Positions 31,701 to 59,795 of a stretch of 64,000 nt of DNA are shown here, piece after piece. The position numbers were made by a program, and so were the translations under genes. This DNA is from an uncultured Acidobacteriota bacterium (GTDB taxonomy: Bacteria > Acidobacteriota > UBA6911 > RPQK01 > JAPXNP01): positions 32,001 through 96,000 of the forward strand of contig CAVZRV010000028.1 in NCBI GenBank assembly GCA_963777605.1, in the 5' to 3' direction. The notes beneath the pieces are model-generated. The model had not been told where the DNA came from and did no database searches. It saw only the letters and a list, made by a program, of their open reading frames with translations. How positions within the stretch are numbered: the first letter of the stretch is position 1; each line of letters begins with the position of its first letter.

Positions 31701-33135
31701 GACGGCGGGAGGGGCGACCACGACCTGACCGAGAATGGCGTCATCGAGATCTTCGGAGGACCGTCCGCCATCGCCGACCTCTACTTCCCCTTCTTTCAGC
31801 CCGACTCGACCACGTTTGTCGGCGTCGCCGTCTCAAATTTCTCGGAAACCTTGGCGAACCTGAACTTCCGGGCGATGGGGGCGTCCGGGGCCGATCTCGC
31901 ACTGCCCCAGAATCCGGCCTCCCGCCTGCTCGAGCCGGAGACGCAGCTGGCCTCCCTGGCCAGCGAACTCTTCGGGGCTCGCATCCTTTACCAGCCGCTT
32001 CGGATGGATCGTTCTCGATACCGATAATCCGCGGCTGGGAAGCTTCTTCCAGTTCGGCGATGCGTCGAGGCTTGACGGCTCGGTGGCGATCCCCGAAGCG
32101 TCCCGGTCGCTGCGGTTCACCAGGGTCTTCGAGGGTGACGCCGCTTACCGCGGCCAGCCGGCTTCCACCCTGCTGGTAGTGGCCAACCCGGATTCCGAAT
32201 CGGCTGCGGTCACCTTCTCTCTGAAGGAGCCGGACGGGAGCACGCGGAAGACTTCCAGCCGCACGATCGCCGGGAAGGGCGTTCTTTCCGAGACGGTATC
32301 CGAGCTATTTGGAATTGCCGCGTCCGAAGGCTACGTCGAGGCCGAGGTCACGGACGGAGCTGGGATCGTGGGTTTCCAGAGAATCAGCCTGAGAGACCAG
32401 AACACGACCATGGGTCTGGCTCCCGCCACCGAGTCGCCGAGCAATGAGCTCTTCTCGGCCCAGCTGGTCAGCGCACCCGGGTTGTTTACGAGCATCAAGC
32501 TGATCAACACGAGCAACCAGAGCCGGACCGTCACCCTGACGGCCACGGCCGACAACGGCGACCGCCTGGCCGACCCGGTGTTCCGGACACTGGGCCCGGG
32601 CGAAAGCCTGGAGGAGGATGCGGCGGTTCTGTTCGCGTCTTCGGCCGCAGGGTCCGCTTCGTCGGCCGCTGCTGCCGATCAACTGGTATTGATCGGGTCT
32701 CTACAGGCCGTCAGCGAGGGGCCAGGCGTTGTCGGCGACGTGCTGTTCGGAGATTCGACGGCGTTCCAGTACGCCGCCGCACTGCCCCTTCAGTCGATTC
32801 CATTCAATGAGGCAGTGTTCAGCCAGTTCGCCAACCTCGAGGGCTTTTTCACCGGCCTGGCCTTCTTCAATCCCGGACTCGTGGACGCACAACTGACCAT
32901 CGATGTCGTGCGGGCGAATGGCCAACTGGCCGGCCGTGCGCAGCTCGAACTGGGCGCAGGAGAACGCTTGTCGAAGCTCGTCGTGGAACTGGCTCCGGAG
33001 ACGGCCGGAGAGGCAGGGGGCTACGTTCTGGTGCGTTCGGATCAGCCCATACTGGCGCAGGTGCTGTTCGGGGCGGTCGGGCCCAACGGTCAGCCGACCC
33101 TGTTCTCGGCAGTGCCGCCCACGGCGATCCGTTAG
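25741..33135 (+). pseudogene. Giant secreted protein, frameshifted as sequenced: FG-GAP module, two CSLREA-type/right-handed beta-helix regions, choice-of-anchor-U-like domain, C-terminal FPQ-like repeats
   Basis: Seven successive same-strand ORFs. AEFNGDGMPDL and GDFDADGHQD; CTFRGAL and CTLRAAIQQAN; many GNxIGTD/NLISGN repeats; TSEFS; YNYGPTPDDPTEHWYEF...DGGRGDHD; FTGLAFFNPG...GYVLVRSDQPI. Confidence 0.8.
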
Positions 33136-33162
33136 ATCGATTTCCAAACAGGGGCGTCGGCA

Positions 33163-33440
33163 ACCAACCCTGGTGCGCCACCGGACACAGAGGCGGGGGT
33201 AAGGAACGCGTCGCCCGGGGTCCGGTGCAGTGCCGGGAACGCAGGCCCAGGGAGGGCCTGCCTCTGTATGCCCGGCGGCCCGTTCGGTTTGCAACCAACC
33301 CCGGTCCGTTCGGTGGACGACCAACCCTGGTGTGCCCGGTGGGCCAGGGTGCCACCGGACACAGAGGCGGGGGTAAGGAACGCGCCCCCGCTTCCTTTGG
33401 TGTGGCAGCCAGCCGTCGGGTCAGGCAGCCAACCCCGGGG
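33163..33440. repeat. Intergenic repeat region with an exact 34-bp direct repeat (second REP-like family)
   Basis: GCCACCGGACACAGAGGCGGGGGTAAGGAACGCG at 33177 and 33351; CCAACCC(T/C)GG four times. A 19/20 match lies inverted at 61608-61627. Confidence 0.8.
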
Positions 33441-33471
33441 TCCAACGGCTCTCTTCTTAGCGCCCCTCTGC

Positions 33472-35716
33472 CTACTTATCCTCCAGCTTCAGGATGACGC
33501 AGATGAGGTCGCCGACGTCGGTCTTCCCGTCTTGATTGCAGTCGACTCTCGCGCCGGTTGCGGACTCGTCGCTGAGCACCTTGACGATTTCGAGCAGGTC
33601 ACCGGAATCGAGTTTGCCGTCTCCCTTAGCGTCGCCTGGGGCTGTCGCTCCGGATGCCGACCTTCTCAAAAGCATCCCGCTGTGCCGGGAGGTGAGCCAG
33701 CCGGTGCCGTCGGGCGCAACGTCGAAGACAAATCCGTTCTGGTCGTTGCCGAAGTAGCCGCCGTCCGTTACGCCTGTCCAAGTCTCTCCGCCATCGATGG
33801 TCTTCAGCAGGCGTGCCGGGTTCGAGCCGTCCGCGTTGGCACCGACCGCAAGCCAACCTTGTTGGCGGTTGACAAACCGAATTTGGTCCCGGGTATCGAG
33901 GGCCGTCTGATCGCGTTGCGCGACCTGGTTCCAGGTCGTTCCCTTGTTGGTTGTCCGGTAGACTGCAACGCCGCCCTGTTGTCCTGCGCCAACCGACCAG
34001 CCGTACTCCTCGTCGAGCAACTGGAGGCCGGTGTACGTCGCGGGCCCGGAGGGGTAGGACCAGGTCTGGCCGCCGTCCCTGGTGCAGGCCATGGCTCCGC
34101 ATTACGGCGCAGTACTGCGTGTCGCTGACGTGGTCTACCCTGGTGTAGCGATTCCCGGGGCCGGCATCCCGGACTGTAGTCCACGTCGTGCCCCGATCAC
34201 TGGTGGCGATGATCCTGCCCGCGCTGTCGCTCGTTGTAATTGCGGTCCAGATCGAATCGGGGGAAGCGACCGAAAGGATCGCTTGCTGGTACGAGCCCTC
34301 CTCCCCGGCATCAATCGGAGCCCAGGTCGCCCCGCTGTCTAGCGACTTCAACAAATCGGCAGGCGGGTCGTAGCCCTCCGTCAATGTCCAGACTTCGGAA
34401 TTCTGGATAATCTTGACCCCAGCCCAGCGAGGGGGGCACATCCCGGGAAACGGGCATGGGATCTCGTGCAAGAGCGGATTCTGCCACGATCCTCCGGAAA
34501 GAGTCTGTGTGAAACTGTTCCAGAAGCTTCCGTCAAAACCAAGGGCAAGCCCTTTTAGCGAGCCGGATGAGAGATCGATGTCCACGTAGCTGAAGCCGGT
34601 CAGCTTCTCCACGCGATCCCATTGCAGGCCGTCGCTGCTGGTCAGAACCCTTTCCTGGCAAAGACCGGAGGCGCAGGGCCAGGCTCCGGCACCCTGACTG
34701 ACAAAGAGCCCTCCACCTGCTACCGCCACATAATGCAGAACGCTCACTGGTTCCCTAACGATCGGAAGCTGGGTCACACAGTTGTGGCAGAAATCGGTGC
34801 GGTTCCATGTCTCTCCCCCATCCACGGTCTCGAGGAGGACACCTCCCGCGCCGACGTCAAGGTCGCTGAAACTCCCGGTCACCCAGCCGTGCAGGGCCGT
34901 AACGAACGCCATATCGGTGACTTGGAAGATATCGGCTGGAAGAGTGGACTGCTGCCAGATTCCATTCTCCCCGTGTCGGTAAACCAGGATCGGCCTTTGG
35001 GCTCCGGGCAGCTCGGGACCACCCAAGGCATAATGATCCGTCCGAGTCGGGGCCTCCAGCGCCGTCAGACGCTGGTCGTCATAGTCGCGTCGAGAGACGG
35101 TCTGGAAATCATCGGCCGTCTCGATGATCACCCCCAGCCATCCCATCCAGTCGGAATAGTAGTTGCCCACCAGGGTGGCACGCCCGTCCCCGTAAATCTG
35201 CAGACCCGTGAACTCGCCCGGCCACTCACCCGAGTCGTAGAGCAGTTCCCAACTGGCCCCGCCGTCGAGCATGGAAGCGAGGATTGCCTGGCCGACCGGG
35301 TTTCTTCCAACCGCGTACGCCCGCAGGGGGCCCGTCATCTGAATACGGTTGAGATACGCGATCGAGTCGGGAAGCGCGTGGACGGTCCAGCTGACTCCGC
35401 TGTTCGAACTGTAGGCGATCCCGGACAGGGTTTGCGCCATGGCGTAGCCGCCCTCGAAGAAGACGAGTCCGCTGATCCAGCTATCCTCAGTCAGCTCGGG
35501 CGCGACCTGCGTCCAGACCCAGTCCCCATCCTGCTGCACCCCCTTGACCAGCAGGTCTCCCCCCAGCCAGACGACGTCGTCCGCAGGGTCGGCGGTCGCC
35601 CGGTTCTGGACCGCGATGGAAAAGAAATCCCCCCCCGACACCCACTCCCAGTCCCGTGCCTGGGCTGGCAGCGTCAGCAGGAAAACGGCAAGCAGTGCTG
35701 GCTTGATTCGCTTCAT
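33472..35716 (-). CDS. YCF48/BNR-like beta-propeller protein with C-terminal dockerin (one frameshift near 34100)
   Basis: Signal peptide, many (S/T)xDGGxTW boxes. C-terminus PGDAKGDGKLDSGDLLEI...DCNQDGKTDVGDLICVI is a duplicated dockerin F-hand. Confidence 0.82.
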
Positions 35717-36909
35717 GATGATCCTACCTCTGCTGGGGAACGGTGATGTCGAAGGTGGTCAGTCAGCACCAGGCCGGCCTGCTTCAGAGCCACGGCGCCG
35801 ATGGGGAGGCTGGCGGTCACCTCGATCGACCCCTGGAACTCGGGCAGTGCCGAAATCGCGGCGAAAAGCTCCCTGGAGAACTGGGGCAGGTGCTCGTACG
35901 GATGCAGGGTGACAGTGCGGGTGGAGAGAACGTCCCCATCCACTTCCTTGACACGAAGTTGCACCACCACCGGGGAGTCGTTGACGTTGTACAGGGCGAT
36001 CCCCGAGTCGTAGACAGCAGCCTTGTAAACGATCGGGATCTCGAAGAAATTGACCAGCGAGGAGGCGGAAACGCCGGCTGCGGTGATGCTCTTGCCGGAC
36101 GGGTCGAACAGCTCGAAGACGATCCGGCCCTCAAGGGGGGCCGTGGCGACCAGGCTGGCGGTCCCCGCCCCCAGGTCCCCGGTCCCGGCACTGTTGAGAA
36201 ACCTGGTGCCGCTCGGGGGAACCGAGAGCGTCAGGGTGGATGCGGTCTGCCCGCCCTCCATCTGGATCTCCCAGGGAACCCCTCCGGAGCGGGCAAAGGA
36301 AATCTCGACGTCGGAAGTGGCGTTGGTGAAGTTGACGAACATCAACTGGGTCTGGAACCGGCCCCCGGCAAAGGTCCCGTTGACGAACTGGGGAAAGACG
36401 GCCAGGTTCTGATCGGCGCCCGGCGTGTTCGGCTGGTTGGTGATGTTGAGCTTTCCCGCCGTTACCTGGGTCGCGAGTTCCGCGCCGGACGAATCGTAGG
36501 CGGCCACGTTGGCGAGCGTGAGGTTGTGGCTCGATCCGAACCCGGCGCCGAAGTCGATATCGGCCACGACCTGCGCGGCGGTACCGGACGCGGCTCGAAA
36601 CGACGCCCGTGAAGAGGAGAAGATGGTGACGTTCACCTTGCCGGCCTTGACCCCGGCCCCGGCGCTGTGATCCCCGAGGAGGTCACCCTTCACCAGGTCG
36701 TCTTTACTGGCCACGGTCAGCACGGCCGAGTCGAATTCCAACAAGCTGAAGAACATGGTCGAGATCTGAGTGGCGTCTTCCACCATGACCGGTATGATTA
36801 CCGGCGTCCCGGGCAACCCGTTCACATCCGGTATCCGGACATGTACGGTGCCGAATGCGCTTGGATTCAGCACTATTCCCAGCAAGAATACCAGTATCCT
36901 CTTCATCAC
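35713..36909 (-). CDS. Secreted cohesin + FPQ-domain adaptor protein
   Basis: Signal peptide; GLPGTPVIIPVMV...LEFDSAVLTV (cohesin); FPQFVNG...DSGIALYN...ELF...VALKQ. The last codons appear shifted by a CTGA duplication. Confidence 0.8.
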   Translation of the reverse strand: MMKRILVFLLGIVLNPSAFGTVHVRIPDVNGLPGTPVIIPVMVEDATQISTMFFSLLEFDSAVLTVASKDDLVKGDLLGDHSAGAGVKAGKVNVTIFSSSRASFRAASGTAAQVVADIDFGAGFGSSHNLTLANVAAYDSSGAELATQVTAGKLNITNQPNTPGADQNLAVFPQFVNGTFAGGRFQTQLMFVNFTNATSDVEISFARSGGVPWEIQMEGGQTASTLTLSVPPSGTRFLNSAGTGDLGAGTASLVATAPLEGRIVFELFDPSGKSITAAGVSASSLVNFFEIPIVYKAAVYDSGIALYNVNDSPVVVQLRVKEVDGDVLSTRTVTLHPYEHLPQFSRELFAAISALPEFQGSIEVTASLPIGAVALKQAGLVLTDHLRHHRSPAEVGSS

Positions 36910-36969
36910 ATTTCTCCCCTCTTGTGGGCTCGAAACCCCGGGACCTCTGCGGCTTCGTGCTCTCGCGTT

Positions 36970-39900
36970 TCACCATGAGCCTTTCCCGAAGTTGACGCCT
37001 GCCTTTAGTCTTTCCCAATCAAGCGTCGTGATCCCCACCACTTCAGCGTCCCCTCGTTTGACGGTGTAGTGCACCTGGGTGACCCGGGGCTGGGCGTCAT
37101 TCCCGGATGCCGACCAGTGTCCGTCGATCCCGGAAGGCAGCAGTACCGGGTGATCGGGCGCGACCGCGAGCGGCAGGCCCTGTATCTGGACAAGCCGGCG
37201 GTTGGAGTAGTCGATCAGCTGTGGATCACGGATCTTGCCGATAAAGGAATACTCGGCGGTGACATCGACAGTCGGGTGATAGGAGTTGAGATTGATTTGC
37301 CCGGTGATCTTGACGGTCGTTGTGTTTGTGTACGGCGGCGCGTCCCAGGGATTCTCTTCCTGCTGTTCCGTGAACTCGACGTCGAATTTGAATCCCGTTG
37401 GACTCCCGGTCCAATTCAGCGGGAGGGCCCCGGCGTTCTCCACGCTGACCCGGCCGATCGCGCTTCCGTCCCCGAGCCTAATAGCGGCGCCTTCTGAGTT
37501 GTACTCGTTGAAACTGGGCTCCCAGACCGACGCGCTGAAGCTGCGGTACTCGTCCTTGAGGTACTGCAGAACATCCCCAACCTTGATATCCCCGACCTTC
37601 TCTGACACCCCTCCCACATTGAGCATCACGGTCACTTCATCCTTACCCAACACGCTGTCCGGGACGTAAGGAGAGACCTTGCCGGGTTGCCACTCTGCAT
37701 AAAGCTGTGCCGCCTCACCGTTGAAAGTGACCGAACTCGAGGGGTGCTGCTCTCCAAACCCATCACCCCAACTTGTGACGGGAGACCTCGGCCAGAGCAT
37801 TTCTTGGTCAGGCTGTGTCCAGATTCTGGGCCTGACAATGTAGCGGCCCCATTCGACCCCAACGCTTTCGGAGTAAAGCCAGAGATCACCTGAAATCGCT
37901 TCACTGGGAATGGTGAATCGAATCTCGCTTGGCTCCCATCCCCAGAAGAAGTCGATCTTGAGATCGCCCAGCATGACGTAGCAACGGGAATCTCCACAAT
38001 CGTTACCGAACCCCGTGCCGGTGATCGTGACTTCCTCTCCGATGTGGGCTTCCGGCGGACTGATGGAAGTGATCTCAAACCCGGCCAGAATGTAGAAGGT
38101 TTCGGCTACGACCGGGACGTCCTCCACTTCGACCACCAGGTATCCGGTCTGCGCACCTGCAGGCACGGCGCAGATGATCTCGGTGTCGGTCCAGGTCGGG
38201 CAGGTCGCGGAAGCCCCCCGAAGGAGACAAACCCGGAATCACCAAACCCGCTTCCCGTGATGGTGACCTCATCCCCGATTCGCCCTTCGGACGGAGCGAA
38301 CCCGGTGATCGTCTGGGGAGGCTGGAGCATCGTGAAAGGCCCGGCCGTGACATCGGAGCCGGCCACCCAAACGACCAGGTCTCCGGTGAGGCCGGCCGCC
38401 GGGACCCGGACCTGGAGCTCGGTGTCGCTCCACGAGATGTAGGAGTCGGCGGGGACTCCCCCAAAGCGGACGACGCTAACGCCGCGATTCTCTCCGAACC
38501 CGGTGCCGGCGATCCAGACTTCATCCCCGGGGTAGCCCTGGTGGGGCAGGTAGCCCGCGATCGTGTGAGTCCGCACCGTAAACTGCCCGGCGTCGGCCGT
38601 CTTCCCCTCGACGTTCAGGAGCAGCGCTCCCGTTTTGGCACCGCCGGGGACCCTGCCTCAATTTGGGAGTCGGACCAGGCCGGGTATGCAGTGGCGGGGA
38701 CACCGCCGAAGGTCACGGTACTGCCGCCGCGGACGGCGCCGAAGCCACTTCCCTGGACGGTCACCGACGTTCCGACCGGGCCTTCCCGCGGATCGACGGA
38801 ACTGACCGCCAGCGGTGCCTGGGGTGTCACGCGAGGCCAGACGTTGCCGAAGCGGTCCACGACCGAGACCACGATCTCGTCCTGGCCACTGCCGTCCGGC
38901 AGGGCGTGAGCCTGTTCCGGCCCGGGCCCCAGCGGGATGAGTTCGGCGCCGGGAAGGACCACGCCGTTTCGGTGGATCCGGTACCCCTGGATGTAACCTC
39001 GGGGTATGTCGCCGATTCCCTCCGTCGTCCAGGTGACGGAATCCGGGCTGTGCAGGGTAACACGCGGAGCCAGGAGGAGGTAGAAGGCGATCTGGGTGAA
39101 CACGCCGCTGGTCGTGCCGCTGTTGACGAGCGAGAACTCGAGACCGGTGTTGGGTCCGGTGCTCCCCATGTCGGGAATGGCCAGGGGGGAACTGCGCAAG
39201 TCGCGAAAACCGAGTCCCGAGCTGAGCGGCGTGACCTCGTCATAAGCGGCATCGGCAGTTCCGAGAAAGGGGTATGCCAGCCATTCCAGGGCCCGGTCAG
39301 CCGAAGCGGAGGCATCGATGACGAGGAGGGCCGGGTCCGGGTTGTTCGCCTGCAGGCGGAGGTGCGAGGCGGAAAGGGGGGGCAGGGTCCTTCGGTAGAG
39401 GACGAAGGTGTGCCGGTTCCGGTTGTCGAACGTGAACCGGGGCAGGCCCGAGAGGCTGAGCGTCGCCAGGGTCGCCATCCGGCTCTTGATGGCGCCGTGG
39501 AGTCCTTCGGACGCTTGCGGGGTCTTCAGGATCTCGTCGACGTAGTCCCCGAAGGCCGAGGTCAGGCCGGGTGCTCCGGCCGCCTGGATTCCGGCTCCCA
39601 GGTTGATCAGGTCCGACGTGGAACCGTGTCTCAGGGCAGCGGCGGTCACTTCCGAGCCGGTGCGCAGCTTCAACCAGTCCAGGAAATGAGCCAGGGTGTA
39701 CATGCTGCCCTCGCTGCCGGTCGTGATCGAGACGTCGAGGTACTGGGCGGCGCGGTCGTAACCGAGTGAGGCGGCGCCCCCCTAAAGCTCCATTCTCTCC
39801 GCGTCGCTCAACTGGACGGCGCGGGCTGAATAGTGGTTGGCGGCTGCCTCAACGAACCACTGGTTGTAGACCCACGCGTGCAGGTTAGAGGAATAGTGTT

Positions 39901-40904
39901 GGCCCTGGAGTACGTGAACCAGTTCATGCCCGGCGACGCCGCGCATCTGGTCCCAGGTTCTGAGCTGCTGGTTGCTGATATAGAGATCGCAGAACCAGCC
40001 TCCGCCCAGCTTCGTCTGACCTTCAATTCCGGGTCCGAGGTCTTCGACGCAAGCGCTCATCGGCGCCGATTCGGGGCTGAAAACCCTCGTCCCGCTCGGG
40101 TCGGTGAAGGTCAGGAGCCTGGCGTAAGCGTCGTTGAGGGCGATGTCCAGGTCTTCGATAGAGTCGGGGATGTCCGGATCGCTGGCGTTTCCGGTCCTGC
40201 TGTCCCAGGTGAGATCGTCGAGCACCGCGTCGGAACCGCCGGTCGGGGGGTAGTAGTAAACCTGGAAACTCGATCCTTGGCGATAGGCCGAACGGAGAGA
40301 GGTGTACTTGCGCGCGCGGACCCGGACCCGCTTTTCGTGGGAAGGGCCTGCCTGAAGCGGGATCTCGGTCCCGTCCCGAAGTCCCGCCCCCGAGGCCGCG
40401 GAAAGCGCCGGGTCCAGCTGGAGGTCGAAGAAAAGGGATTGGAGGTCGCTGTCGTACCCGGCCGCGTTTCCGATCGGAACCCAGCGGCTGGTTTCCGGGT
40501 CAAAAGCCTCGGGCGTCAATCGATCCGGTTTCCGAAACCGGCGCCGAAGTCGATCTGCATGACGACCTGGAAGAGCAGTCCGGAGTCTGACTTCAGCAGG
40601 TCGAGGGATGGAGAGAAGGCATGACCCGAACCTTGCCACTTTCACGAACCACATCCAGCCCGTGGTCGAAGAGGACATTCCCAGAAAGGACCCAGTCGTC
40701 CGATTCGACACTGAGTTTCGCCGGGTCATACTCGAGAGTCAGTTGAAGCGCGGAAAGGTCAACCGCTCCATCGATCATCACCGGGACATTGACGGTGGTG
40801 CCGGGAAGCCCGCTGATTTCGGGGACCCTCACCACTGCCTGCCCCAGGGAGGCTGGAACCAGCGACATCACGATCAGCAGGCGTAGCATCGACCTCAAAC
40901 GCAT
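36970..40904 (-). pseudogene. Frameshifted secreted protein: N-terminal cohesin, HExxH+E metallopeptidase-like domain, about five IPT/TIG repeats
   Basis: GLPGTTVNVPVMIDGAVDLSALQLTLEYDPAKL (cohesin); AGHELVHVLQ...WFVEAAA; repeated P.EG.IG.EVTITGxGFG. Five or more ORF pieces. Confidence 0.72.
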
Positions 40905-41120
40905 TCCTCCGGCAAGTTGAGTGTAAAGGCAAATTGGATTTCGATGAAGTGGCTTGGCGAATTAATCTCCGAATGCCGCTGTAGAAGCCACTGGAAATCT
41001 GCGGGAAAGACAGGGAAGACTGTTGAAGCGTAATGACTTGATCCCCATTTCCGGGAGCTCTTCTGAGGGTTGCTGTCGATGGAAAAAAGGAAGTCCTATG
41101 TCGTCGGAAGAACTCGATTT

Positions 41121-41528: not shown

Positions 41529-41572
41529 AATAAAATACTTATAAAATTTCCACCTTTTCAGGTCGAGTCTTC

Positions 41573-42925
41573 ATGAGATTCCCCATAGGTCCCTCGCTGC
41601 TCCTCTTTCTGGCCTTCTCTGGCTGTCAGACCCATTCCCGGTTGGAGCCAATCGAACGGGAATTGGTGGTCCTGACCCGGATGGCGCCTACAACGTATTA
41701 CGAAGATCAGAACGGCAATCCGGCCGGTCCCGAATACGATCTGGTCAAAGTGTTTGCCCGGGCGCGAGATGTCCCGGTACGGTTTCAGATCGTGGATACC
41801 ATTGACGAAATTCTCCAGAAGCTGGAGCAGGGCGAAGCCGATCTGGCGGCGGCAGGCCTCACCCTGACTGAATCCAGGTCCGACCGATTCCAGGCGGGGC
41901 CTGCATACCAGGAAGTCTCCGAGATCTGTGTCTGCAGTAAGGCGTCAGAGGTGGATTCCCCCGCAGAACTTGTCGGCGTTCGGCTGGCAATTGGTAAAGA
42001 GAGCAGCTACGAGGAGACACTGCAGAACCTCAAATCCACTATCCCCGACCTGAAATGGACGACGAGAGAACTCTCGACAGAGCAACTCCTTCAGAAGGTT
42101 TGGGAAGAGCAGATTGACTGCACGATTGCGGATTCGAACATTGTGGACATCAACCAGCGCTACTTTCCCGAGATCGAGCGTGCGTTTTCCATCGGCAGCA
42201 AACGCTCCCTGGTCTGGTATATGCCCCAAGGAAGTCCTGTGCCGTCGGAAGAACTCGATCGATGGTTTGAGACACTTCGACAGTCGGGAAGGCTCAGCGA
42301 CATATTGAACCGTTACTACGGCCACATTGATGAATTCGATTATTACGACACCCGGGTGTTCCTCGATCGGATGGAAAGCCGGCTGGAGAAATTTGAGCCG
42401 CTTTTCAGAAAAGCAGCTTCAGACGCCGGATTCCCCTGGCAGTTGATAGCAGCCATCGCCTATCAGGAATCCCAATGGAATCCTGAGGCCACGAGTCCAA
42501 CCGGAGTCCGCGGACTCTTCATGCTGACCCGATCAACCGCACGGGCGCTCGGAGTCGCCAACCGCCTCGACGCGGAGCAAAGCGCGCTGGGCGGAGTCCG
42601 ATACCTCCGACAACTCTTTCAGAGGATCCCGTCATTCATTCAGAGTCCAGACCGTCTCTGGATGGCCCTGGCAGCCTACAACGTGGGATTCTCACACCTC
42701 CAGGACGCCCGTCGACTTGCGATCGACCTCGACCGAAATCCCAACCGGTGGTTTTCCCTCAAAGAGGTGCTGCCCCACTTGACCCAGAAGAAATATTACC
42801 GTCGGCTTCGTCACGGCTATGCCCGAGGTCACGAACCAGTGCTTTTCGTGGAACGCATTCGGCACTATCAAGATCTTCTGACGGAAAAACTCGATCAACA
42901 AGGAGAGTTGGCCGCGCTCAGGTAA
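41573..42925 (+). CDS. mltF: Membrane-bound lytic murein transglycosylase F
   Basis: SBP_bac_3 domain (PTTYY, ADLAAAGLT) plus SLT domain (AYQESQWNP, SPTGVRGLFMLT, ALAAYNVG, GYARG). FSGC lipobox. Confidence 0.93.
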   Translation: MRFPIGPSLLLFLAFSGCQTHSRLEPIERELVVLTRMAPTTYYEDQNGNPAGPEYDLVKVFARARDVPVRFQIVDTIDEILQKLEQGEADLAAAGLTLTESRSDRFQAGPAYQEVSEICVCSKASEVDSPAELVGVRLAIGKESSYEETLQNLKSTIPDLKWTTRELSTEQLLQKVWEEQIDCTIADSNIVDINQRYFPEIERAFSIGSKRSLVWYMPQGSPVPSEELDRWFETLRQSGRLSDILNRYYGHIDEFDYYDTRVFLDRMESRLEKFEPLFRKAASDAGFPWQLIAAIAYQESQWNPEATSPTGVRGLFMLTRSTARALGVANRLDAEQSALGGVRYLRQLFQRIPSFIQSPDRLWMALAAYNVGFSHLQDARRLAIDLDRNPNRWFSLKEVLPHLTQKKYYRRLRHGYARGHEPVLFVERIRHYQDLLTEKLDQQGELAALR

Positions 42926-43255: not shown

Positions 43256-46200
43256 ATGCGACAGATCTTGCGACCGAACCGTCTCTTCACCCTCTGTGCC
43301 CTGGCCATCATGTCACTCGCTGCCCTGGTTCTGATCGGGGCACGATCCCGTCCCTTTGGAGGCGGAGGGCCGGCCACCGTCCAGGCTGTGCTGGAGAGTG
43401 CCCCCTCACCAATTAGAGGAGAATACCTTCAAAAGATTCCGGAATTCCGACGACTTCTCCGGTCACCCGTTGAGATCGGGGAGATTGATCGATTGGCGAC
43501 CCCTCCCGGCTACCAGATCGCGAGCACAGGCGGGCGGATTATCTTCGCCCACATCGCTGACGGCGCCATTCAGGGTACCAACCAGTTCATGCAAACCTCG
43601 ATTACCGTCGTGAATGACTCCACCTACCCCGTCGCAGCCACGCTTCAGTTCTACGAAAATGCCGGAGGAGCACTCACGCTGACAATCGACAAAGTGTCCG
43701 CCTCGAGCTTCAGCTTTTCGCTCGTTCCCGGACAGATGAAGCGGCTGGTGACGTCCGGCACCGGGAGCGTCAAGAGCGGATGGGCTCTGCTTCGTTCCGA
43801 CCAGCCGTTGGCAGCGACCTGCAGCTTTTCCCTTCGCACGACAAGTGGCGGAATCCTGAGCGATGTCGGCGTCGAAGAATCGATCCAGAACACGGAATTC
43901 ACTCTCTTTGCCGATACTCTCGGCAATGCCGACACCGCCATGGCACTCGTCAACCCCGACGAGTCAAACACGGCCAACGTGACACTTGAACTCTACAATT
44001 CAACGGGTGTTGTCAAAGCCAGTACGGCTGTCACCCTTCAGCCCAGGGAGCACCTGGCGAAGTTCGTCACTGAACTCTTCCGCGGAACTTCCGGAATCGG
44101 TGAGTTCGAAGGTTCGCTTGTGGTTCAGAGCAACCGGCCCGTGACAGGAATCACTCTGCGGACCCTGGGCGCTCTCTTGACCTCGGTGCCCATGGTGCCG
44201 GCCCGGAATCCCAGGGATGCCGTCACAGAACTCGACTTTCCTCAAATCGCCGACGGAACCGCTGCCCCGCTCCGGATCGTCACCAGTGTCATTGTCTTCA
44301 ACAATGGAGCCGACCCGATAACGGGGACCCTGGAGTTCATCAAAGCCGACGGGAGCCCAATGGCCGTATCGATCGGCAACCAGACGGCGAGTTCGTTCGA
44401 TTTCAACCTGAATCCGCGAGGGGTGCGTCGCTTTCAGACCCAGGGAAGCGGTGCCCTCAAGACCGGGTGGGCACGGATCACCGCGGACGCCGGGGTTGCC
44501 GGTTCCGCGATCTACCAGATCCAAAATCCGGGGGCAGGCCAGGTCGTTACTGAAGTCGGCGTCAATGCGGCGCCGGGGACCAGTCCGATCAACGCGATTG
44601 CAGATTCGATTGCAGATGCGCGCACCGGTCTCGCTTTGGCAAACCGTAACCCGGATGACTCTACGGATGTAACCATCTCCCTGTACGACGGCAGCGGGGC
44701 AAAGAAGGCGGGGAAGGAGATTACCCTCGAGCCCCTGGCCCAACAGGCTCTGTTCCTGGACGAGTTCTTCAGCGAGGTCTCAGGGATTCAGGAACTGCTC
44801 GGCAGAGTGCTCATCAGTGGCGACGAAGGCACCGTGGCGCTCACCTTGCGCCAGACCGGCCTCCTGACGACTTCGGTACCCACGGTCAACCCGGTTCACG
44901 GCTTCGCCCCCGTCTCGGTTTTCGAGTTCATGCAGACCCTTACGTCGACTTCTCCCGCGGTCAGGTGGCGAATCGAACAGAGCGGGATTGACCTTGGGCT
45001 CAACCAGCTCAGCGCCTCCGCAACTGGCCTTGGGGCAAACCTGAACTTCCCGGCTGGATCTGAACTGGGGTACGGAGTCTACCTGTTGAAATATGGGTCC
45101 GTGATCTCAACGGGAGGCGTAGTCAAGCTCATTTCAACACGAACCGACTCACTGACATTCGACGTAGTGATTTCCGGAGAGAATATCGAGCCGGGTACCG
45201 TGCTGATGTCGGGAAAGATCACAGGGCAGGCGACGGGCAACCTGGTCATCGAACTCGGCCCAACGGGAGCTTCCAACGGCGACTGGAACTATGGTTTCGG
45301 CCTGGAACTGGATCTGCTGCTGCGGGATGGCCTGATCAACGCCCCCACACAAGCGGGAACCAGAACCATCGAAACAGTCTATACGTCGGCCTCGCAGAAG
45401 CTGACGGAGGATGCCGTCCGAATTGTGCGCACGACGACGCAGCCTCAGAGTTTCACGCCTGCAGCCGCGGGTTCGCCCTTCCTGACTTCTTCCCGCCCAC
45501 TCTACACGTCTCCAGGGGGGACCTTTGTGCTGCAGGGAGGGAACTTCGGTGCGGAACCGGATGTAACCTTCAAGCCCGATGGAAGCAGTGACCTGCCAGC
45601 GTTCTTCCCGACACTTGTTGATCAGGGGCTCGAGGTCTATGTTCCTACCGCCGCTCAAGCCGGAACCGTCCAGGTCTTCAATGGGCAGTCGGCTTCGAAC
45701 CAGCTGAAAACGCTGACCATCTACAGCCCGACAATGACGCTGGTCAAGGCAGCCGGATCCTCGGGCGACTCGTTTACAATTGACCTGACCTCCAGCCAAT
45801 CTCCGGTCCAGCTTGGCCTGGCAACGTTCCAGCTTTCACTTTTTGGAGCAGCATGGCCCGAGGTACAGGGCGCTGCGGGATCGGTCGTCGGATCTTTCAC
45901 AATCACGGGGGAAGCCCAGGCTGGACAGGCGGAGCAATTCGACGTCAGGCTCGAATCGAACCAGGCCGAGTCGATCAGCCTGGCCGTCCTGGAAGAGGGG
46001 GAAACGGATCCAGCTGGTCGGATCACCCTGTCCAAGGGAACGGGCACTTCGTCGGACGGAATTCTTCTGTTCTACGCTCCGCTGACCCTCAGCGACATCC
46101 CAAGAGTCAACGGATTCCCCACCTCTTTGGAGTTAGTCCTTGACGGCCTGGTTTTTGCCCCGTCAACGGCCGGATCCGAGGTCTACTGGGCTGCCGAGTC

Positions 46201-46276: not shown

Positions 46277-46308
46277 CGTGAAAGGCACCGATCCTCAGGA
46301 GAATCAAT

Positions 46309-47196: not shown

Positions 47197-47961
47197 GTGA
47201 GCCAACTTGTTCAGATCGCGGGGTTGGCCTCGGGCTTCCTGATAGCTCTCACCCTTTGGGTACGGAGTCGTCATCCCGTCGAACCCGCCCTGGTTCGGCT
47301 TCTCCTTGGGGCGCCCCTGATCTTTGTCGGGGGCAAGGGACTCTACCTCCTGGAACAGGGCACCTGGAGTCGGCAGGCACTGACGGACCCGGGCTACTCG
47401 GGGTTTGGAGCGCTGTTTCTGGTCTTGGCCTTTTGGATCGTCTCGTTTCGATTCCAGTCTGCTCCGCTTCTCGAGTTCCTCGATGTCGTCACGCCCGCCG
47501 CGGCAGTGGGCCTCTGTTTCGGTCGGATCGCCTGCTTTCTGCAGGGCTGTTGTGGGGGCGTGACCTGCGACTTGCCCTGGGCGATCCAGTTCCCCTCGAA
47601 CACGCCGCTGTTTGCCGGGCAGTTGGCCGAAGGCCTGGTACTCCCGTCGAGCCGCAATACGCTTCCGGTCCACCCTGTGCAACTGTACGAGGCGGCATTC
47701 ACTCTCCTGGCCGGTGCAGGGTTGCTCTGGATGTTGACCCGGAAGCAGCTGCGGCCAGGCCGGGTATTCTTCTGCGGGGCTCTCTGCTATGGGGTGTTTC
47801 GCTTCCTGGTGGAAGAACTCCGTTTTGACGGAGGTCGGCTCTTGTCACAGGGCGAAGGAAGCTGGGCTCAGTTCGCAGCGTTGGGGCTGGCCTTGTTCGG
47901 TCTCCTGGGGACCATACTGCTGACCCGAAAGCCGCACGCCAATTTCTTTCCTCGCTCGTAG
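47197..47961 (+). CDS. Prolipoprotein diacylglyceryl transferase (Lgt)-family paralog
   Basis: Multi-TM; GRIACFLQGCCGG, LPWAI, HPVQLYE, RFLVEELR. Confidence 0.85.
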   Translation: MSQLVQIAGLASGFLIALTLWVRSRHPVEPALVRLLLGAPLIFVGGKGLYLLEQGTWSRQALTDPGYSGFGALFLVLAFWIVSFRFQSAPLLEFLDVVTPAAAVGLCFGRIACFLQGCCGGVTCDLPWAIQFPSNTPLFAGQLAEGLVLPSSRNTLPVHPVQLYEAAFTLLAGAGLLWMLTRKQLRPGRVFFCGALCYGVFRFLVEELRFDGGRLLSQGEGSWAQFAALGLALFGLLGTILLTRKPHANFFPRS

Positions 47962-54500: not shown

Positions 54501-55429
54501 AGCCTCCGACCGGTAGCGAGCCGGGATCGAGAGCTCCCGGTCTCTCCGGATGATGCTGACCTCAGACCCGGCGGCCACTGCCAAGTCAATCGGGAAATCA
54601 CCGTCCAGGGCTCCGAGGGCAAGAGCCGAGATCCGGCTCGGAAATCGAATCTCTTCGGGTTCCTGGCGAAGGGCACCGCGGGGGCTTTGGAAAACGAGGA
54701 CGGTCGCTCCTCCTCTGCCGTCGATTCCCACCACGAGATCCGCAAGGCCGTCACGGCGGTTGACCTCCCCGCTGACGAGTGCGGTCACAACACCCGGAAG
54801 CTCAACCCGTTCCGGAGCGCCGAATCGTCCATCCCCTGAACCGGGCATCAGGAAAAGAGCGGCCTCGTCCGTGGCTACTACGACGAGATCGAGGTGCCAT
54901 CAGCATCGAAGTCGCCCGCAGCCATGAAGTTGGGAACGACAGGCGAGGACTGCACCATCGCCCCGGGCTCAAACGGGGTATCGGTGAAGACGCCCTCGGC
55001 CTTCCTTCGGAGTGCCTCCCGGCTGTTGGGATAGACCGCATCGACGCTCCCGCGGTGTAGAGCAACAATCCCACCATCCGGCCCGCCATACCCGCAAACG
55101 AGGTCGGGCATACAGTCCTCGTCGGAAATATCCCGACGTCAATGACAACGGATCGACCGATTGTGATGAAAGAAGAAACCGGAACGCGGGCTTCCCTTCG
55201 TACTCGGCTTCGACCGGCCGGCTCGACTGAAGGTTAATCCAGGGACGGCCCTGACCCATCGCACGGAGAACGGCGGAGGAAAGCTCTCCTCCGGACTTGC
55301 CCCAGCCAGACCCGTCCACAAGAAGGAAGAAGAAGGCAAAGGCAGAACCGCCCGGCAATCTTCGTCATCAAACTCGATCCGCCGCCGATCCGGCTCTTCT
55401 TTCTCCTCCGGCCGTTGTATCATGATCAC
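48518..55429 (-). pseudogene. Giant secreted protein, frameshifted as sequenced: FG-GAP module, CSLREA/beta-helix, Ig-like domains, helical region, DxDxDG Ca-binding repeats, C-terminal dockerin
   Basis: About eleven ORF pieces. GDFDADG, NRRDGLADL, CTFWAAIDESN, GNxIGTD repeats, NTSEFS, DSDGDGYGDGEE; C-terminus PGDLNRDDQLDVRDLV...ADVNGDGKIDMADAV. Start overlaps the upstream stop (ATGA). Confidence 0.8.
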
Positions 55430-58400
55430 TTCGGCTCCAGGACTGGGAACGTTGTCAGCAGTATTCCCTCCTGCTTGAGAGCAACTACGGCAATTGGGGT
55501 CGGCGATGTGACTTCAATCCGCCCTTCAAAGTCGGCCTGTCCAGTCAGCGAGTCGAACAACTCGGTGGCGAAGAGCGCCTGGTGCCGGCCCGCCGACAGA
55601 TCCTGAACGGTCGTTTCCAGGGTTTCTCCGTCTGGATCCAGGAGGGTCAGGGAGACCTCCGCACCGGCGGATGAAACGTTGGCAAGCGCGATCCCGGTGT
55701 TGGACCCGCCGCCGACCAGGAGCGGGAGGGTGAATGCCTTTCCGACCGGAGAGACCCCGACCGCCGTCTCGGACGAGGAACTCCCATCCGGCTTGACGGC
55801 GGTGAAAATCAGCGTGCCGCCGAGAGGGACCGTCGAACTGACCGGGGCGTAACCCGAGGCCAGTTCCCCCAGGCCATCGGTCTGAAGGAACAGAGCTCCA
55901 GCGGCTGGAATCTCCAGGTCGAAACTCGAACCGGTGCGGCTGTCGGTCAGCGTCAGCGCGAAGGGAGAACCGTCGGAGCGGAAGAATTCGATCTCTCCCA
56001 CCGCATCCGCCTCGGACCGGTTGACGAAGACCAGCGTGGTGACAAAGCTGCCCCCGGCAAACTGCCCGTTGGCAACCTGCGGAAACACGATCTCATTCTG
56101 GCCGGCTGAAGGCGGGGGGAGCGATTCGGAGGCGATCACCGAGCCACCGGAAAGCCCCGGCACGAGGCTGTTACCGGCCGCGTCCGAGACGTCTGCACCA
56201 ACCAGGTTGAAAGCGACGGCGGTCCCCACGGGGACACCCCCGTCGAGTCGAAGGGTCACGTTCGCCAAAACTCCTTCCGATCCCGACAGTGTGTCAAGGC
56301 CGCTCGAGAAGCCGGCTACCGTGATCCGGTTCGCCTCAATCGAGTAGCTCAGAGTGTGATTCCCGGCCAGGTCACCGGCGGAGACCACTCTGGACGCCGG
56401 TACGGAAAGCAGATCCGGGTTGAAAGCCAGCGTGAACCGAAAGGCCGAAACCCCGTCCCCTCCCTCGATCCGCACTGGAACGATAGCGGTACTTCCGGGG
56501 GGTGCCGATGCCGTGCCGACCGACAGCGCTACGCGCGTCGGTTCGAGGATCGTCAGGAATCCGTCGTCGGTCCCGCCATAGGTTGCCTGGACAGCATCCC
56601 TCACTGGAAAATCAGTCGAGTTGGTGCGGCCGACCAGGTAGATGTTGCCCGCCCCGTCCACATCCAGGTCAGAGATATCCTCGCTGGAAGACGAAGGGTC
56701 GCCGGTATCGCCTCCAAAGGAACTCGAGAAAAGGACGGACGGCGGATCGTCGGACGAAAAGACCGCAATGAACCCGTCACTGGTCCCGGGGGCCTTCGCG
56801 GCCTTCAACGGGGAGACCGTTGGGAAATCGTTGGAGTTCGTGAACCCGGCCAGATAGGCCTGTCCGTCATCCCCAACCCTCACCGCAAACGCCCAGGTCT
56901 GACCACCGCCCCCCAGGTACGTGGAATAGAGCAGTTGGTTTCCGCTCGACGAAAGTCGGCTCAGGAACGCATTTTCATATCCTTCCCGATCGAAGACGGT
57001 TGCGCCGGCAGTCACCGGAAAATCGTCCGAGCCTGTGAATCCCGTCAGGTAGATGCTTCCGTCCGGTCCCCGATCAATGCCCCGGATCTCGTCCTGGCTG
57101 CCCCCGCCCAGGTAGGTCGAGAAAAGAACCTGACCTCCGCTGGAACTGATCTTCACAACCGTGCCGTCGCGTCCTCCACCCGACGCCGGCTGCGCCGCTC
57201 CCGAGACCGGGAAATCGGTTGATTCAGTCAATCCGCCCAGGCAGAGATTGCCAGAACCGTCGAGCGACAGGGCCAGAAAGAGATCCAGCCCACTTCCGCC
57301 GTAGTAGGTGGAAAACCGAACTGACGAGCCCCCAGGGGCCAATTTCGTTGCGAAACCGTCATAGTCACCGTCGAGACCGGCCTTGAGGGCGTTGGACGTC
57401 GGGAAATCTGCCGATCGCGTGTAGCCTGCCAGGTAGATGTTTCCCGACGGATCGACCTGGATTCCCTCGATATTGTCGTCGCTGGAGCCTCCAAGATAGG
57501 ACGAGAAAAGAATCCGGGAACCGTCGGATGACAGCCTGGTGATGAATCCGTCTCTCGAACCGACCACCGGGCCTTGGTTGATGTCGCTCTGGATCGGTTT
57601 GACCAGCGGAAAATCGGCCGATTTGGTGGTTCCCGCGACGTAGGGAGTCCCGTCGGGCCCCACGGCCAACTCCCACCCATACTCCTCGCGGTCGCCCCCG
57701 AGGTAGGTTGCAAACAGCAGTTCGCCGCCGCCGGGGCTGTACTTGGCAATGAATACATCACTTGAATAGAAGCCGGGGCGGTCACGCTTTTCCGACTGTA
57801 CCGGGTCGAGTGTCGGGAAATCGTCGGAGTAGGTGTCCCCGACCACAAAGATGTTGCCGTCGGAGTCGAGGGCGACGGACCGGATCGACTCACTGGCGCT
57901 TCCTCCCAGATAGGTCGACAGCCGAATGACCGGATCAACGGTCAGCTTTTGCTCCAGGTTTCGGTCGGGAATCCGAAATCCATAGCTCTGTCTGCCCCGG
58001 ATCTCGAACGTTCCGGGGACTCCGGTCCTCCCTTCCTGGAGCACAACGGGCGGACTTTGAACCAGGACGCGGTCACCCTGCCGAATAAGCAGGTTGCCAT
58101 CTTCGTCGAGTTCCAGCAAATCAGCCCCTTCAACCCGCATCTCGACCTGAGACAGGTCTCCAAAGGGCTCGAGAGTGAGGTCGTACTCGAGTTCCCCATC
58201 CCGACTGTAAAACCAGGCATCAACACCCGGGTAAATGTCGCGGTAAACGAGGCGCCGGAAGTGGGGAACGCCGGTATGCCATTCCTCCGGGGTTCGGCCT
58301 CGAAAGTAGTGGCTCCGGGCGGCGGTCTTTTCGACGCCGCGGGGTCCAGAGGAAGGCTCCGATCCGACAAATTGGAGCTGGACACCCTCCTTCGAGCCTC

Positions 58401-58617
58401 CCAAACCGATCGATACGCCGTCGTGCGAGAACCCGATCCCTCGCCTGCCCGCCCGCGCCAGGAAGAGGTAGTTCAAATCCACCTGTCCGCGATTCGCTTC
58501 GAAGGTGAAGTCCCGCTGCCGGATCGCCTTCCGAGCAACCGACAGGGCGACCGCCTGGCTCCAGACGCAAGACGCCAGGAGCAGCGCGATTGCCGGCAGA
58601 CTGTTCTGCGCCCTCAC
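55426..58617 (-). CDS. SBBP beta-propeller repeat protein + cohesin + C-terminal FPQ domain
   Basis: FEANRGQ...IYPGVD...DP head; about seven STYLGG...G.T.S.DFP repeats; APPGSTAIVPVRI...FTLAFNPDLL (cohesin); FPQVANG...NTGIALAN...LLTTFPV. Confidence 0.88.
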   Translation of the reverse strand: MRAQNSLPAIALLLASCVWSQAVALSVARKAIRQRDFTFEANRGQVDLNYLFLARAGRRGIGFSHDGVSIGLGGSKEGVQLQFVGSEPSSGPRGVEKTAARSHYFRGRTPEEWHTGVPHFRRLVYRDIYPGVDAWFYSRDGELEYDLTLEPFGDLSQVEMRVEGADLLELDEDGNLLIRQGDRVLVQSPPVVLQEGRTGVPGTFEIRGRQSYGFRIPDRNLEQKLTVDPVIRLSTYLGGSASESIRSVALDSDGNIFVVGDTYSDDFPTLDPVQSEKRDRPGFYSSDVFIAKYSPGGGELLFATYLGGDREEYGWELAVGPDGTPYVAGTTKSADFPLVKPIQSDINQGPVVGSRDGFITRLSSDGSRILFSSYLGGSSDDNIEGIQVDPSGNIYLAGYTRSADFPTSNALKAGLDGDYDGFATKLAPGGSSVRFSTYYGGSGLDLFLALSLDGSGNLCLGGLTESTDFPVSGAAQPASGGGRDGTVVKISSSGGQVLFSTYLGGGSQDEIRGIDRGPDGSIYLTGFTGSDDFPVTAGATVFDREGYENAFLSRLSSSGNQLLYSTYLGGGGQTWAFAVRVGDDGQAYLAGFTNSNDFPTVSPLKAAKAPGTSDGFIAVFSSDDPPSVLFSSSFGGDTGDPSSSSEDISDLDVDGAGNIYLVGRTNSTDFPVRDAVQATYGGTDDGFLTILEPTRVALSVGTASAPPGSTAIVPVRIEGGDGVSAFRFTLAFNPDLLSVPASRVVSAGDLAGNHTLSYSIEANRITVAGFSSGLDTLSGSEGVLANVTLRLDGGVPVGTAVAFNLVGADVSDAAGNSLVPGLSGGSVIASESLPPPSAGQNEIVFPQVANGQFAGGSFVTTLVFVNRSEADAVGEIEFFRSDGSPFALTLTDSRTGSSFDLEIPAAGALFLQTDGLGELASGYAPVSSTVPLGGTLIFTAVKPDGSSSSETAVGVSPVGKAFTLPLLVGGGSNTGIALANVSSAGAEVSLTLLDPDGETLETTVQDLSAGRHQALFATELFDSLTGQADFEGRIEVTSPTPIAVVALKQEGILLTTFPVLEPK

Positions 58618-59795
58618 TCGGGCACCACCGGAAATGTCGTCAACAGGGCTCCGCTTTGCTTGAGTGCGATGGCGGCAACGGCCTCCGATGCCACCACCTG
58701 TATGAACCCGTTAAAGGCCTGCTGGGCAGGGATTTCGCTGAAGAACTCGCTGGCAAAACGCGGTACGTGCTCTCCGGGCGAAAGGTTCAAGGACCGGCTG
58801 CCGATGATCTGGCCGTCCGGCCGGTGCAGAGTCAGGGTCAACTGGATACTGGTCCGGCTCGTGTTGGCAAACGCGATCCCGGTGTTCGAAAGCCCGGGCT
58901 CAACCAGAATTGGCACCTTGAAGTGAGTCAGCAGCAGCGAGGCTCCCACTCCGGTTTCAGCGGTGGTCGTTCCGGCACTGTTGCGGGACGAAAAGAGCAA
59001 CGTACCTCCAATGGAGGCGGTTGCCCGAATTTCGGCGTATCCGATACCCAGAGCGCCGGAGGCATCCGTCTCCATGAAGACCGATTCCTGGGATCCCAGC
59101 GCAAATGGGAACACCGAGCCAGCCCGCCCATCCTGGAGTTGAACAACTAAAGGAGATCCATCGGACCGATACAACCGCACTTCGGCGTCGGTAGCGAGGC
59201 CGCTCAAGTTGGCGAAAATCAGCGTCGTGCGAAAGCTGCCGCCGGGATAGGACCCGTCAACAACCTGGGGAAAGAAGAGATCATTCGCTCCTCGCGCCGG
59301 CGCCAACGACCCAGCGCCCAAGGTCAAATTCCCGGAAACCGGCTGGACCTCCACCCGATTTCCCAGCCGATCAGAAGCCAGGACGTTTGACAACTGGACA
59401 GGGATCTGCACCCCGTTTGGAATGCCTGCCTGCAGGTTCACCCTCAACTGCAGAAGTGTCCCCCTGTCTGCCCCGAACTCGCTCGAGGACGCTGACGAAA
59501 CCAGGATTCTTGCCGACCCGTTTCGACGTTCAAATCCCAGAGTGTGGTCGGGCAGGAGAGATCCAGCAATCCAGAAGTCTTCCGCGGGCAGCGTCAAGCG
59601 GGAGTCGAGACCAAGCGTCAACTCGATCGCGGAGATGCCGGCTCCGCCTTCCAGGATGACAGGCACCACCAATTCCGTTCCTGCTGAGGCACCAAGGTTT
59701 GGGACCGTGAGTTGCGCCTGACCAAGTGCATGACTGCCAAGGCACAGCAACACCTCAGCAAAAAGGAAAGCCAGCAGTCTTCCGGTCGCTGCCAT
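58614..59795 (-). CDS. Secreted cohesin + FPQ-domain adaptor protein
   Basis: Signal peptide; AGTELVVPVIL...ISAIELTL (cohesin); FPQVVDG...NTGIAFAN...LLTTFPV. Same layout as 35713-36909. Start placed at MAATG. Confidence 0.82.
   Translation of the reverse strand: MAATGRLLAFLFAEVLLCLGSHALGQAQLTVPNLGASAGTELVVPVILEGGAGISAIELTLGLDSRLTLPAEDFWIAGSLLPDHTLGFERRNGSARILVSSASSSEFGADRGTLLQLRVNLQAGIPNGVQIPVQLSNVLASDRLGNRVEVQPVSGNLTLGAGSLAPARGANDLFFPQVVDGSYPGGSFRTTLIFANLSGLATDAEVRLYRSDGSPLVVQLQDGRAGSVFPFALGSQESVFMETDASGALGIGYAEIRATASIGGTLLFSSRNSAGTTTAETGVGASLLLTHFKVPILVEPGLSNTGIAFANTSRTSIQLTLTLHRPDGQIIGSRSLNLSPGEHVPRFASEFFSEIPAQQAFNGFIQVVASEAVAAIALKQSGALLTTFPVVPE

Follow-up and report, generated by a model that had tools for sequence, protein, structure and literature searches.

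A widespread duplicated module of exported Acidobacteriota proteins, its likeness to ASRT and TM1070, and its apparent assembly from four lobes

In a 64,000 nt stretch of DNA from an uncultured Acidobacteriota bacterium (contig CAVZRV010000028.1; hereafter the window, with positions counted from its first letter), several genes for exported proteins share a unit of about 225 amino acids (aa). On structural and bridging evidence we place this unit as a new branch of the ASRAH superfamily, outside the Pfam families ASRT and DUF5719. The family of secreted-protein modules to which it belongs is very large and uncatalogued, and the working form of the unit appears to be a closed assembly of four lobes. 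The explanation that we favour as a whole, with somewhat better than even confidence, is a paired ASRAH module that would close into a four-lobe form, bind a sugar and tether its carriers; the dimerisation in it is predicted, and ligand and tethering are what we infer.

Five copies of a duplicated unit

A preliminary description of this DNA had proposed a repeated two-lobed unit in five genes, and the copies are indeed there. Translation and alignment give five full units of about 225 aa with pairwise identities of 27–43% over 222–225 aligned positions. Their likeness is far beyond chance, since BLASTP joins 10 out of 10 pairs at E-values from 8e-60 to 2.5e-19. All 907 six-frame open stretches of at least 40 aa in the window were scanned with hidden Markov models (HMMs) of the unit. 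The HMM of the five copies recovers the four carriers and one additional open reading frame (ORF), 31864-33132 on the forward strand (E 8.5e-17), and nothing else; a deeper HMM, for which 324 units from relatives were used, finds the same set plus a weak lobe ending 30798-32024.

Three of the full copies lie on the reverse strand. The unit at 55429-56103 (lobe 1 at 55747-56103, lobe 2 at 55429-55746; E 8.5e-72, here and for the following units with the deeper HMM) makes up the last 225 residues of protein 55426-58617 (1063 aa), in which it follows DUF7948, an SBBP propeller and a cohesin. The unit at 58617-59291 (E 6.7e-68) accounts for the last 225 residues of ORF 58614-59852 (412 aa), which probably starts at the ATG at 59795, has a cohesin-like N-terminal half and shares 4 bases with the start of 55426-58617. 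The same architecture, with PF00963, is present in the relatives P0192, P0193 and P0195. The third copy, at 35716-36414 (E 5e-62), is the C-terminus of the 398-aa protein 35713-36909, where it follows a signal peptide and a cohesin. As a separate observation, the signal peptide of 55426-58617 ends in ...LLLASC, which by eye is lipobox-like, so that this protein may be a lipoprotein.

The remaining two copies stand in tandem on the forward strand, at 43526-44209 (E 1.9e-71) and 44216-44899 (E 2.3e-71), in the 1006-aa protein 43256-46276. They begin at residue 92, after a membrane helix (residues 9-29) and a disordered linker, and their four lobes are followed by about 460 all-beta residues; for these C-terminal 458 aa neither a Pfam match nor a usable ESM Atlas match was found. 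The orthologue family of this protein, about 1000 aa in length, is well conserved (42 near-full-length and two shorter partial relatives were aligned).

In addition, four diverged lobes, arranged as two pairs, occupy 31785-33132 on the forward strand at the end of a giant gene, 25714-33135, whose layout is FG-GAP, beta-helix, choice-of-anchor U and lobes. Lobe A lies at about 31785-31976, read in the same frame as 30963-32027 (deeper HMM, E 0.008), and lobes B to D are in the frame of 31864-33132, with the last pair at about 32485-33066 (lobe-2 HMM, E 3.4e-23). The earlier assignment of diverged lobes to the end of a gene at 25741-33135 was right as to the lobes, but not as to a single gene frame, as no fewer than seven overlapping ORFs, spread over different frames, make up the region. 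A break of frame affects 35713-36909 as well: its last approximately 20 residues are out of frame from about 35754-35766 and spurious as read, and reading on in the other frame restores the family-typical ending LTTFDITVPQQR, with its stop at 35724-35726. A public fragment (P0200) matches part of the 55426-58617 unit with 100% identity before its frame is lost, and the relative L007 is frameshifted. These two cases therefore suggest that the frame breaks in the long genes are indel errors of the assemblies rather than gene decay or pseudogenes. A further region with a frame break is found at 36973-38576.

Judged from its sequence, the unit is a tandem duplication of a domain of about 110 aa, since hhalign aligns lobe 1 to lobe 2 with 96.2% probability and an E-value of 2.4e-9. 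The two lobes first described are thus better called two homologous domains. The motifs by which the unit had been recognised, FPQ(V/I)x(D/N)G and (N/D)TG(I/L)A, hold up and are conserved over the 324 units from relatives. In the consensus of these units the lobes start with a hydrophobic stretch (FPQvA(D/N)G in lobe 1, F.lP in lobe 2), strand 2 ends in an Asn (T.f.L.N in lobe 1, (D/N)TGlAl.N in lobe 2), and both continue with a ...dG.P... turn and a closing G.l.v.S..p.a strand pair. G13 is conserved in 98%, N28 in 95%, T137 in 94%, A140 in 95% and G195 in 99% of the units, and the conserved polar positions are Q/H9, D/N12, T22, E112 (262 units), T137 (303), H175 (262) and R211 (285). An AlphaFold2 (AF2) model of the unit 55429-56103, made from 5 sequences, is all-beta with 8+8 strands at a predicted local distance difference test (pLDDT) of 82. 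All-beta, too, is the model of the whole 1006-aa protein 43256-46276 made from 44 orthologues (pLDDT 89.1, predicted TM-score (pTM) 0.84), and DSSP counts about eight strands per lobe in both models.

The profile that had been recommended for following up the copies reaches far beyond their carriers in the window. Out of 1.84 billion it matches 11,579 cluster representatives at E<=1e-3, of which 6,306 are found at E<=1e-10 and 1,401 at E<=1e-30. None of the five units reaches a Pfam cut-off, and none matches any NCBIfam model at E<=1. The earlier statement that the family has no name therefore holds for curated models of Pfam and NCBIfam, but fold and relatives, as set out below, point to a known superfamily. 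All relatives for which an organism is named belong to the Acidobacteria or Acidobacteriota; these comprise two rows of the profile matches, 13 out of 13 related loci, two of ten clusters and the ESM Atlas clusters. The 13 loci were found with two patterns from a narrower alignment and do not delimit the taxonomic range, because both patterns reach close relatives only. No paper on such a module was among the matches listed in a literature search on cohesins and dockerins of Acidobacteria, judged by the listing. In soil, the Acidobacteriota count among the most abundant bacteria, and most of their large secreted proteins lack annotation. A single module that occurs in at least 11,579 protein clusters is missing from both Pfam and NCBIfam, which is a considerable annotation gap.

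Relationship to the ASRAH superfamily

A fold comparison had been suggested for the unit, and it gave a match over one lobe to two related proteins. When the AF2 model of the unit was compared with the PDB by Foldseek, only TM1070 and ASRT, the Anabaena sensory rhodopsin transducer, combined a probability of 1.00 with a TM-score above 0.5 among the 50 matches listed. TM-scores, normalised by target, were 0.68-0.71 for TM1070 (1nc7, chains A, B and D) and 0.72-0.79 for ASRT (2ii8, 2ii9), and the remaining matches listed had at most 0.26.

The ASRAH superfamily was defined from ASRT by de Souza, Iyer & Aravind in 2009 (PMC2739507), the sole relevant paper among the matches listed in a literature search on ASRAH. 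According to the accessible part of that paper, it is a small superfamily with three branches; its domain is an eight-stranded sandwich made of two four-strand repeats, with a Trp starting strand 1 and a near-invariant Asn ending strand 2 as hallmarks. The extracellular branches always hold the domain in pairs (actinobacterial lipoproteins) or in fours (amidase fusions). The accessible part of a lectin paper which mentions TM1070 speaks of a weak likeness in fold only (PMC9191617).

Several of these features are found in the unit. Each lobe of about 100–120 aa is an eight-stranded sandwich by DSSP strand count and Foldseek. With strands taken from the AF2 model, an Asn directly follows strand 2 in both lobes (N28 in 307 and N143 in 280 out of 324 units). 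The unit itself is a pair, and four lobes are present in most of the relatives, as detailed below, and in the tail of 25714-33135.

DUF5719 (PF18986) provides a bridge. The nearest named ESM Atlas clusters are one with DUF5719 in 87% of its members and one with DUF5719 in 39% and ASRT in 13%. One unit in the window, 43526-44209, is weakly matched by DUF5719 (E 6.6e-4), although the units stay below its gathering cut-off of 26.2 bits (best 19.3 bits). The tail ORF 32083-33132 lies just above it with 26.5 bits, and 17 out of 35 relatives of the tail match DUF5719. The tail family and the unit are in turn aligned by hhalign with 98.4% probability (E 9.9e-15, 189 columns). The name DUF5719 was not found in a literature search; we presume that it corresponds to the secreted lipoproteins of actinobacteria, with two ASRAH domains each, that the accessible part of the 2009 paper describes (PMC2739507). 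Our placement of the module in ASRAH combines Foldseek, the borderline matches to DUF5719, the conserved Asn and the organisation in pairs or fours.

The likeness to each of the known branches has its limits. With ASRT and TM1070 (PF07100) the unit shares the one-lobe fold, the eight strands, the Asn after strand 2, the assembly in fours and a predicted interface with the outer face of strand 2 (residues 23, 25, 27 and 29). However, those proteins are stand-alone, cytoplasmic, about 120 aa long and form tetramers of four chains, whereas the domains here come as fused pairs in exported proteins with large passengers. A match at the sequence level was not obtained, and the strand-1 Trp and the SHE..C..N motif of ASRT/TM1070 are replaced by FPQ.A(D/N)G...T.h.h.N and (D/N)TG.A..N. 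DUF5719 is alike in its pair organisation, extracytoplasmic location and borderline profile matches, but it belongs to another phylum, the units remain below its cut-off, and the carriers here are modular with many kinds of passengers. Neither the conserved lipoprotein Cys nor the family-specific extensions at both termini, which the accessible text gives for the actinobacterial family, were seen in our module (PMC2739507). The amidase-fused fours of Chloroflexi likewise combine four lobes in one secreted chain with another domain; in them the passenger is, as far as that text goes, always an N-acetylmuramoyl-L-alanine amidase, whereas no amidase is among the commonest families here (PMC2739507). 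The module may be the largest extracellular branch of this small superfamily.

A probable closed assembly of four lobes

Three independent lines of evidence, i.e. the prevalence of two units per protein, circularly permuted arrays and a homodimer model, lead us to conclude that the working form appears to be a closed four-lobe assembly. Two full units are present in 167 out of 185 relatives from outside the window, a set in which high-scoring and therefore two-unit proteins are over-represented, as the 150 top-scoring ones were taken.

In 14 of 190 proteins the four-lobe array is circularly permuted, and P0036-P0039 are near cases. The order is then a piece of lobe 1 (from about residue 40 to 114), followed by lobe 2, lobe 1, lobe 2 and the missing first part of lobe 1 (residue 1 to about 50–69). 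Therefore both ends of the array must meet, completing one sandwich. These arrays sit either after a signal peptide or at the C-terminus; we noted permuted arrays among the relatives P0020-P0033, P0040 and P0042. A comparable 'Velcro' closure, in which one repeat is split between both ends of the array, occurs in beta-propellers. As there, the split across the array ends implies a closed ring, but here one beta-sandwich lobe out of four is divided into halves instead of a propeller blade, and the closure is read from lobe order. The split approximately coincides with the boundary of the two four-strand repeats in the accessible description of the ASRAH domain (PMC2739507). The permuted arrays are a natural experiment on the closure of the assembly.

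Proteins with a single unit would have to pair in trans. For the unit of 58614-59852 (alignment A6 with 18 rows), homodimer prediction gave scores of 0.84, 0.85 and 0.79, with 0.00 for the best control. The runs shared at least 89% of their contacts, and the models were symmetric with pLDDT of at least 90. The calibration mark was reached by 20 out of 30 solved homodimers and one out of 23 monomers, counts which are valid only roughly because our own alignment was used. The predicted interface joins lobe 1 of one chain (residues 23, 25, 27, 29, 66-72 and 95-99) to lobe 2 of the other (125-129, 156-162, 194-198 and 209-225). This model supports binding between the chains without showing it. Self-assembly of the module, which the preliminary description had listed among its checks, thus has some backing from structure prediction as well as from sequence. 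Single-unit genes can also be neighbours, as 58614-59852 followed by 55426-58617 in the window and likewise in L004 and L005; therefore hetero-pairing of adjacent gene products is possible.

One may ask whether assembly is all that the module does. As a dimer or a closed scaffold of four lobes that pairs or stiffens its carriers and binds no ligand, it would account for the homodimer prediction, the permuted closed arrays and the pTM of 0.84 for 43256-46276, and it would agree with passengers that give no hint at a glycan. Yet the conserved polar residues exceed the usual needs of packing, and the related superfamily is described, in the accessible part of the 2009 paper, with a pocket at the dimer interface (PMC2739507). 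We consider a pure assembly module unlikely.

Placement in exported proteins

Of the same 185 relatives, 112 carry the array at the N-terminus and 53 at the C-terminus; in 16 it extends from one end of the protein to the other, and only four have it at an internal position. Thus, in 181 out of 185 it lies at a terminus or makes up the entire protein. N-terminal arrays begin directly after signal-peptide-like sequences or, in the orthologues of 43256-46276 with about 1000 aa, after a membrane helix and a linker of about 60 aa. A crude signal-peptide pattern is present in 143 of the 169 relatives that start with Met. The unit is located outside the cytoplasm. Random placement or cytoplasmic carriers had been named beforehand as what would speak against an envelope role; what we find is terminal placement and common signal peptides. 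That the module is a discrete and conserved entity, joined to unrelated passengers in carriers with a signal peptide or an N-terminal membrane helix, is borne out.

The preliminary description had also offered the unit as a candidate sorting module, and this part has to be given up. It is true that the unit ends three genes in the window, as a C-terminal sorting or secretion signal of the sortase, PEP-CTERM or type IX kind would. But such domains (PEP-CTERM, type IX CTD, LPXTG) are obligately C-terminal and have a hydrophobic and basic tail or a cleavage motif, whereas the array here is N-terminal in the majority of the relatives, sometimes internal, and occurs in tandem. After C-terminal arrays 0-35 residues are left in 59 out of 69 cases, and among the tails inspected no hydrophobic or basic sorting tail and no transmembrane plus basic segment was found; the tails (...PTLTTFPVIPG) are the extended last strand. 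In the cohesin-type relatives L001 and L004-L006, 208-314 aa follow the unit. Therefore the placement is non-random, yet unlike that of a C-terminal signal, to which we give hardly any credence. The 23-32 residues left by many C-terminal units had also been considered as a PEP-CTERM-like tail, and were dismissed when inspection revealed the extended last strand in them.

Placement bears also on the view that the unit is an inert Ig-like spacer or stalk. Foldseek with the model of the whole 1006-aa protein seems to favour it, as only generic multi-Ig and macroglobulin chains were found; however, their TM-scores are all at most 0.22, so that this comparison is uninformative. A stalk would hardly be confined to the termini or be fixed at two or four lobes, and permuted arrays and conserved polar residues do not fit it either. 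We therefore hold a mere spacer to be very improbable.

Passengers and proposed role

The passengers are diverse. They comprise CarboxypepD_reg, Sortilin/BNR, SBBP and NHL propellers, FG-GAP, TIG, fn3 and PKD, and furthermore LRR, cadherin, beta-helix and peptidases of the families S8, S41 and M6. These data come from two censuses (45 and 48 carriers), each covering the 25 commonest Pfam families, and from the precomputed domains of 43 matches.

A beta-sandwich from a superfamily predicted to bind sugars, with a GH16 gene nearby at 60376-61566, might be a carbohydrate-binding module (CBM) which directs its carriers to a polysaccharide of the environment rather than to their own envelope. The recurrent fusion to glycoside hydrolases or lyases, the hallmark of a CBM, was however absent from both censuses and from the domains of the 43 matches. 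Propellers, LRR, cadherin, fn3, beta-helices and proteases are the passengers instead, and the GH16 protein is without the unit in both HMM scans. Such substrate targeting is, in our opinion, quite improbable. A match to a characterised family of different function, for instance a CBM, had been expected to speak against an anchoring role. What was found goes halfway in this direction: the related superfamily is a predicted sugar binder, and only halfway because its binding has been predicted and not measured.

Two carriers display a cohesin (PF00963, cut-off 24.1 bits) directly upstream of the unit, at 36442-36843 on the reverse strand (residues 23-156 of 35713-36909; 27.8 bits, E 3.2e-6) and at 56194-56532 on the reverse strand (residues 696-808 of 55426-58617; 33.0 bits, E 8.2e-8). 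As in the SLH-bearing anchoring scaffoldins of cellulosomes, with which the preliminary description had compared the unit, a secreted protein here carries a cohesin and, after it, a non-catalytic module at its end. Unlike in those, the fold of the unit is different, the module is N-terminal just as often, and no dockerin, SLH or sortase-type match was obtained in 53 ORFs of the window (E<=1e-4) or in 14 neighbours (E<=0.05), covering the 64 kb.

We propose the following mechanism. Each unit would be a pair of homologous eight-stranded sandwiches, ASRT/TM1070-like and belonging to an Acidobacteriota branch related to DUF5719. The four-lobe form could arise in cis, from two tandem units as in 43256-46276 and the tail of 25714-33135 or by circular permutation in some relatives, and in trans, by dimers of proteins with one unit, among them the three in the window that bear cohesins; the co-operonic pair 58614-59852 and 55426-58617 might form a heterodimer. 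The clefts at the lobe interfaces would bind a small ligand, by analogy to the superfamily most likely a sugar that forms part of a polymer of the envelope or matrix. In this way the module would pair its carriers and tether the propellers, cohesins, beta-helices and proteases they bring along. In the accessible text on ASRAH, the cleft predicted to bind sugars has walls that include the dimer interface, and the extracellular forms are predicted to bind cell-surface polysaccharide (PMC2739507). An anchor in the envelope or matrix would be compatible with these nearest known relatives, which we reasonably infer by analogy; that the ligand is a sugar of this polymer is presumed from the same analogy only. 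Peptidoglycan is kept among the candidate ligands because 43256-46276, on the forward strand, lies between 41573-42922, which encodes an MltF-like lytic transglycosylase (SBP_bac_3 and SLT), and lgt at 47197-47958.

A number of points weigh against this proposal. Sugar binding would be inherited from a superfamily for which it is itself a prediction. The strand-1 Trp of ASRAH is lacking, as position 7 is F in 191 or L in 98 of 324 units; the corresponding start of lobe 2, position 124, is F in 221. With three profiles (A1, A6 and A7) no ASRT or TM1070 chain was found in the PDB at E<=10, where only chance-level matches (STAS, nsp10, YceF) appeared, and Pfam ASRT was matched just once in 35 relatives of the tail, at E 0.098. 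DUF5719 was recorded in three of 45 and four of 48 unit carriers, i.e. in only 7 out of 93. The count of two-unit proteins comes from the biased set mentioned above, and the dimer score may in part be a memory of solved TM1070/ASRT tetramers. Finally, neither census (45 and 48 carriers) has a glycoside hydrolase or peptidoglycan enzyme among its 25 commonest passenger families, and hence no architecture points to a particular glycan.

A bolder version would make the closed four-lobe ASRAH assembly, whether in cis, in trans or permuted, the general glycan anchor of Acidobacteriota. We regard this as tentative and rather doubtful. To our knowledge no such anchor has been known in this phylum. 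If true, hundreds of secreted passengers, including the proteins that display cohesins, would be fixed to the cells' own envelope or exopolysaccharide, and the module would be a functional counterpart of SLH or LysM. In any case, a paired ASRT-like domain working in fours offers a testable handle on ligand, dimerisation and placement of cargo.

Other features of the window

The cohesin protein 35713-36909 lies in an apparent operon of secreted proteins on the reverse strand, 33629-40729. It contains three ORFs with TIG domains (36973-39703), possibly one broken gene, an ORF of 315 aa without known function, and a 696-aa BNR/Sortilin-like propeller with an ATG at 35716.

The positions 3310-4527 and 20560-21777 form a direct repeat of 1218 bp with 99.7% identity. 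Each copy contains an ORF of 317 aa with a weak match to IS200-like Y1 transposases, and the two look like one insertion element present twice. A 945-aa protein is encoded at 4767-7601 on the forward strand; it combines a TOTE-type archaeo-eukaryotic primase (E 7e-96) with a ResIII helicase and DUF559 and resembles the protein of TOTE conflict systems. On the reverse strand, a Rieske protein, a cytochrome b and a multihaem cytochrome c at 9428-12226 constitute the cluster of a bc-type complex.

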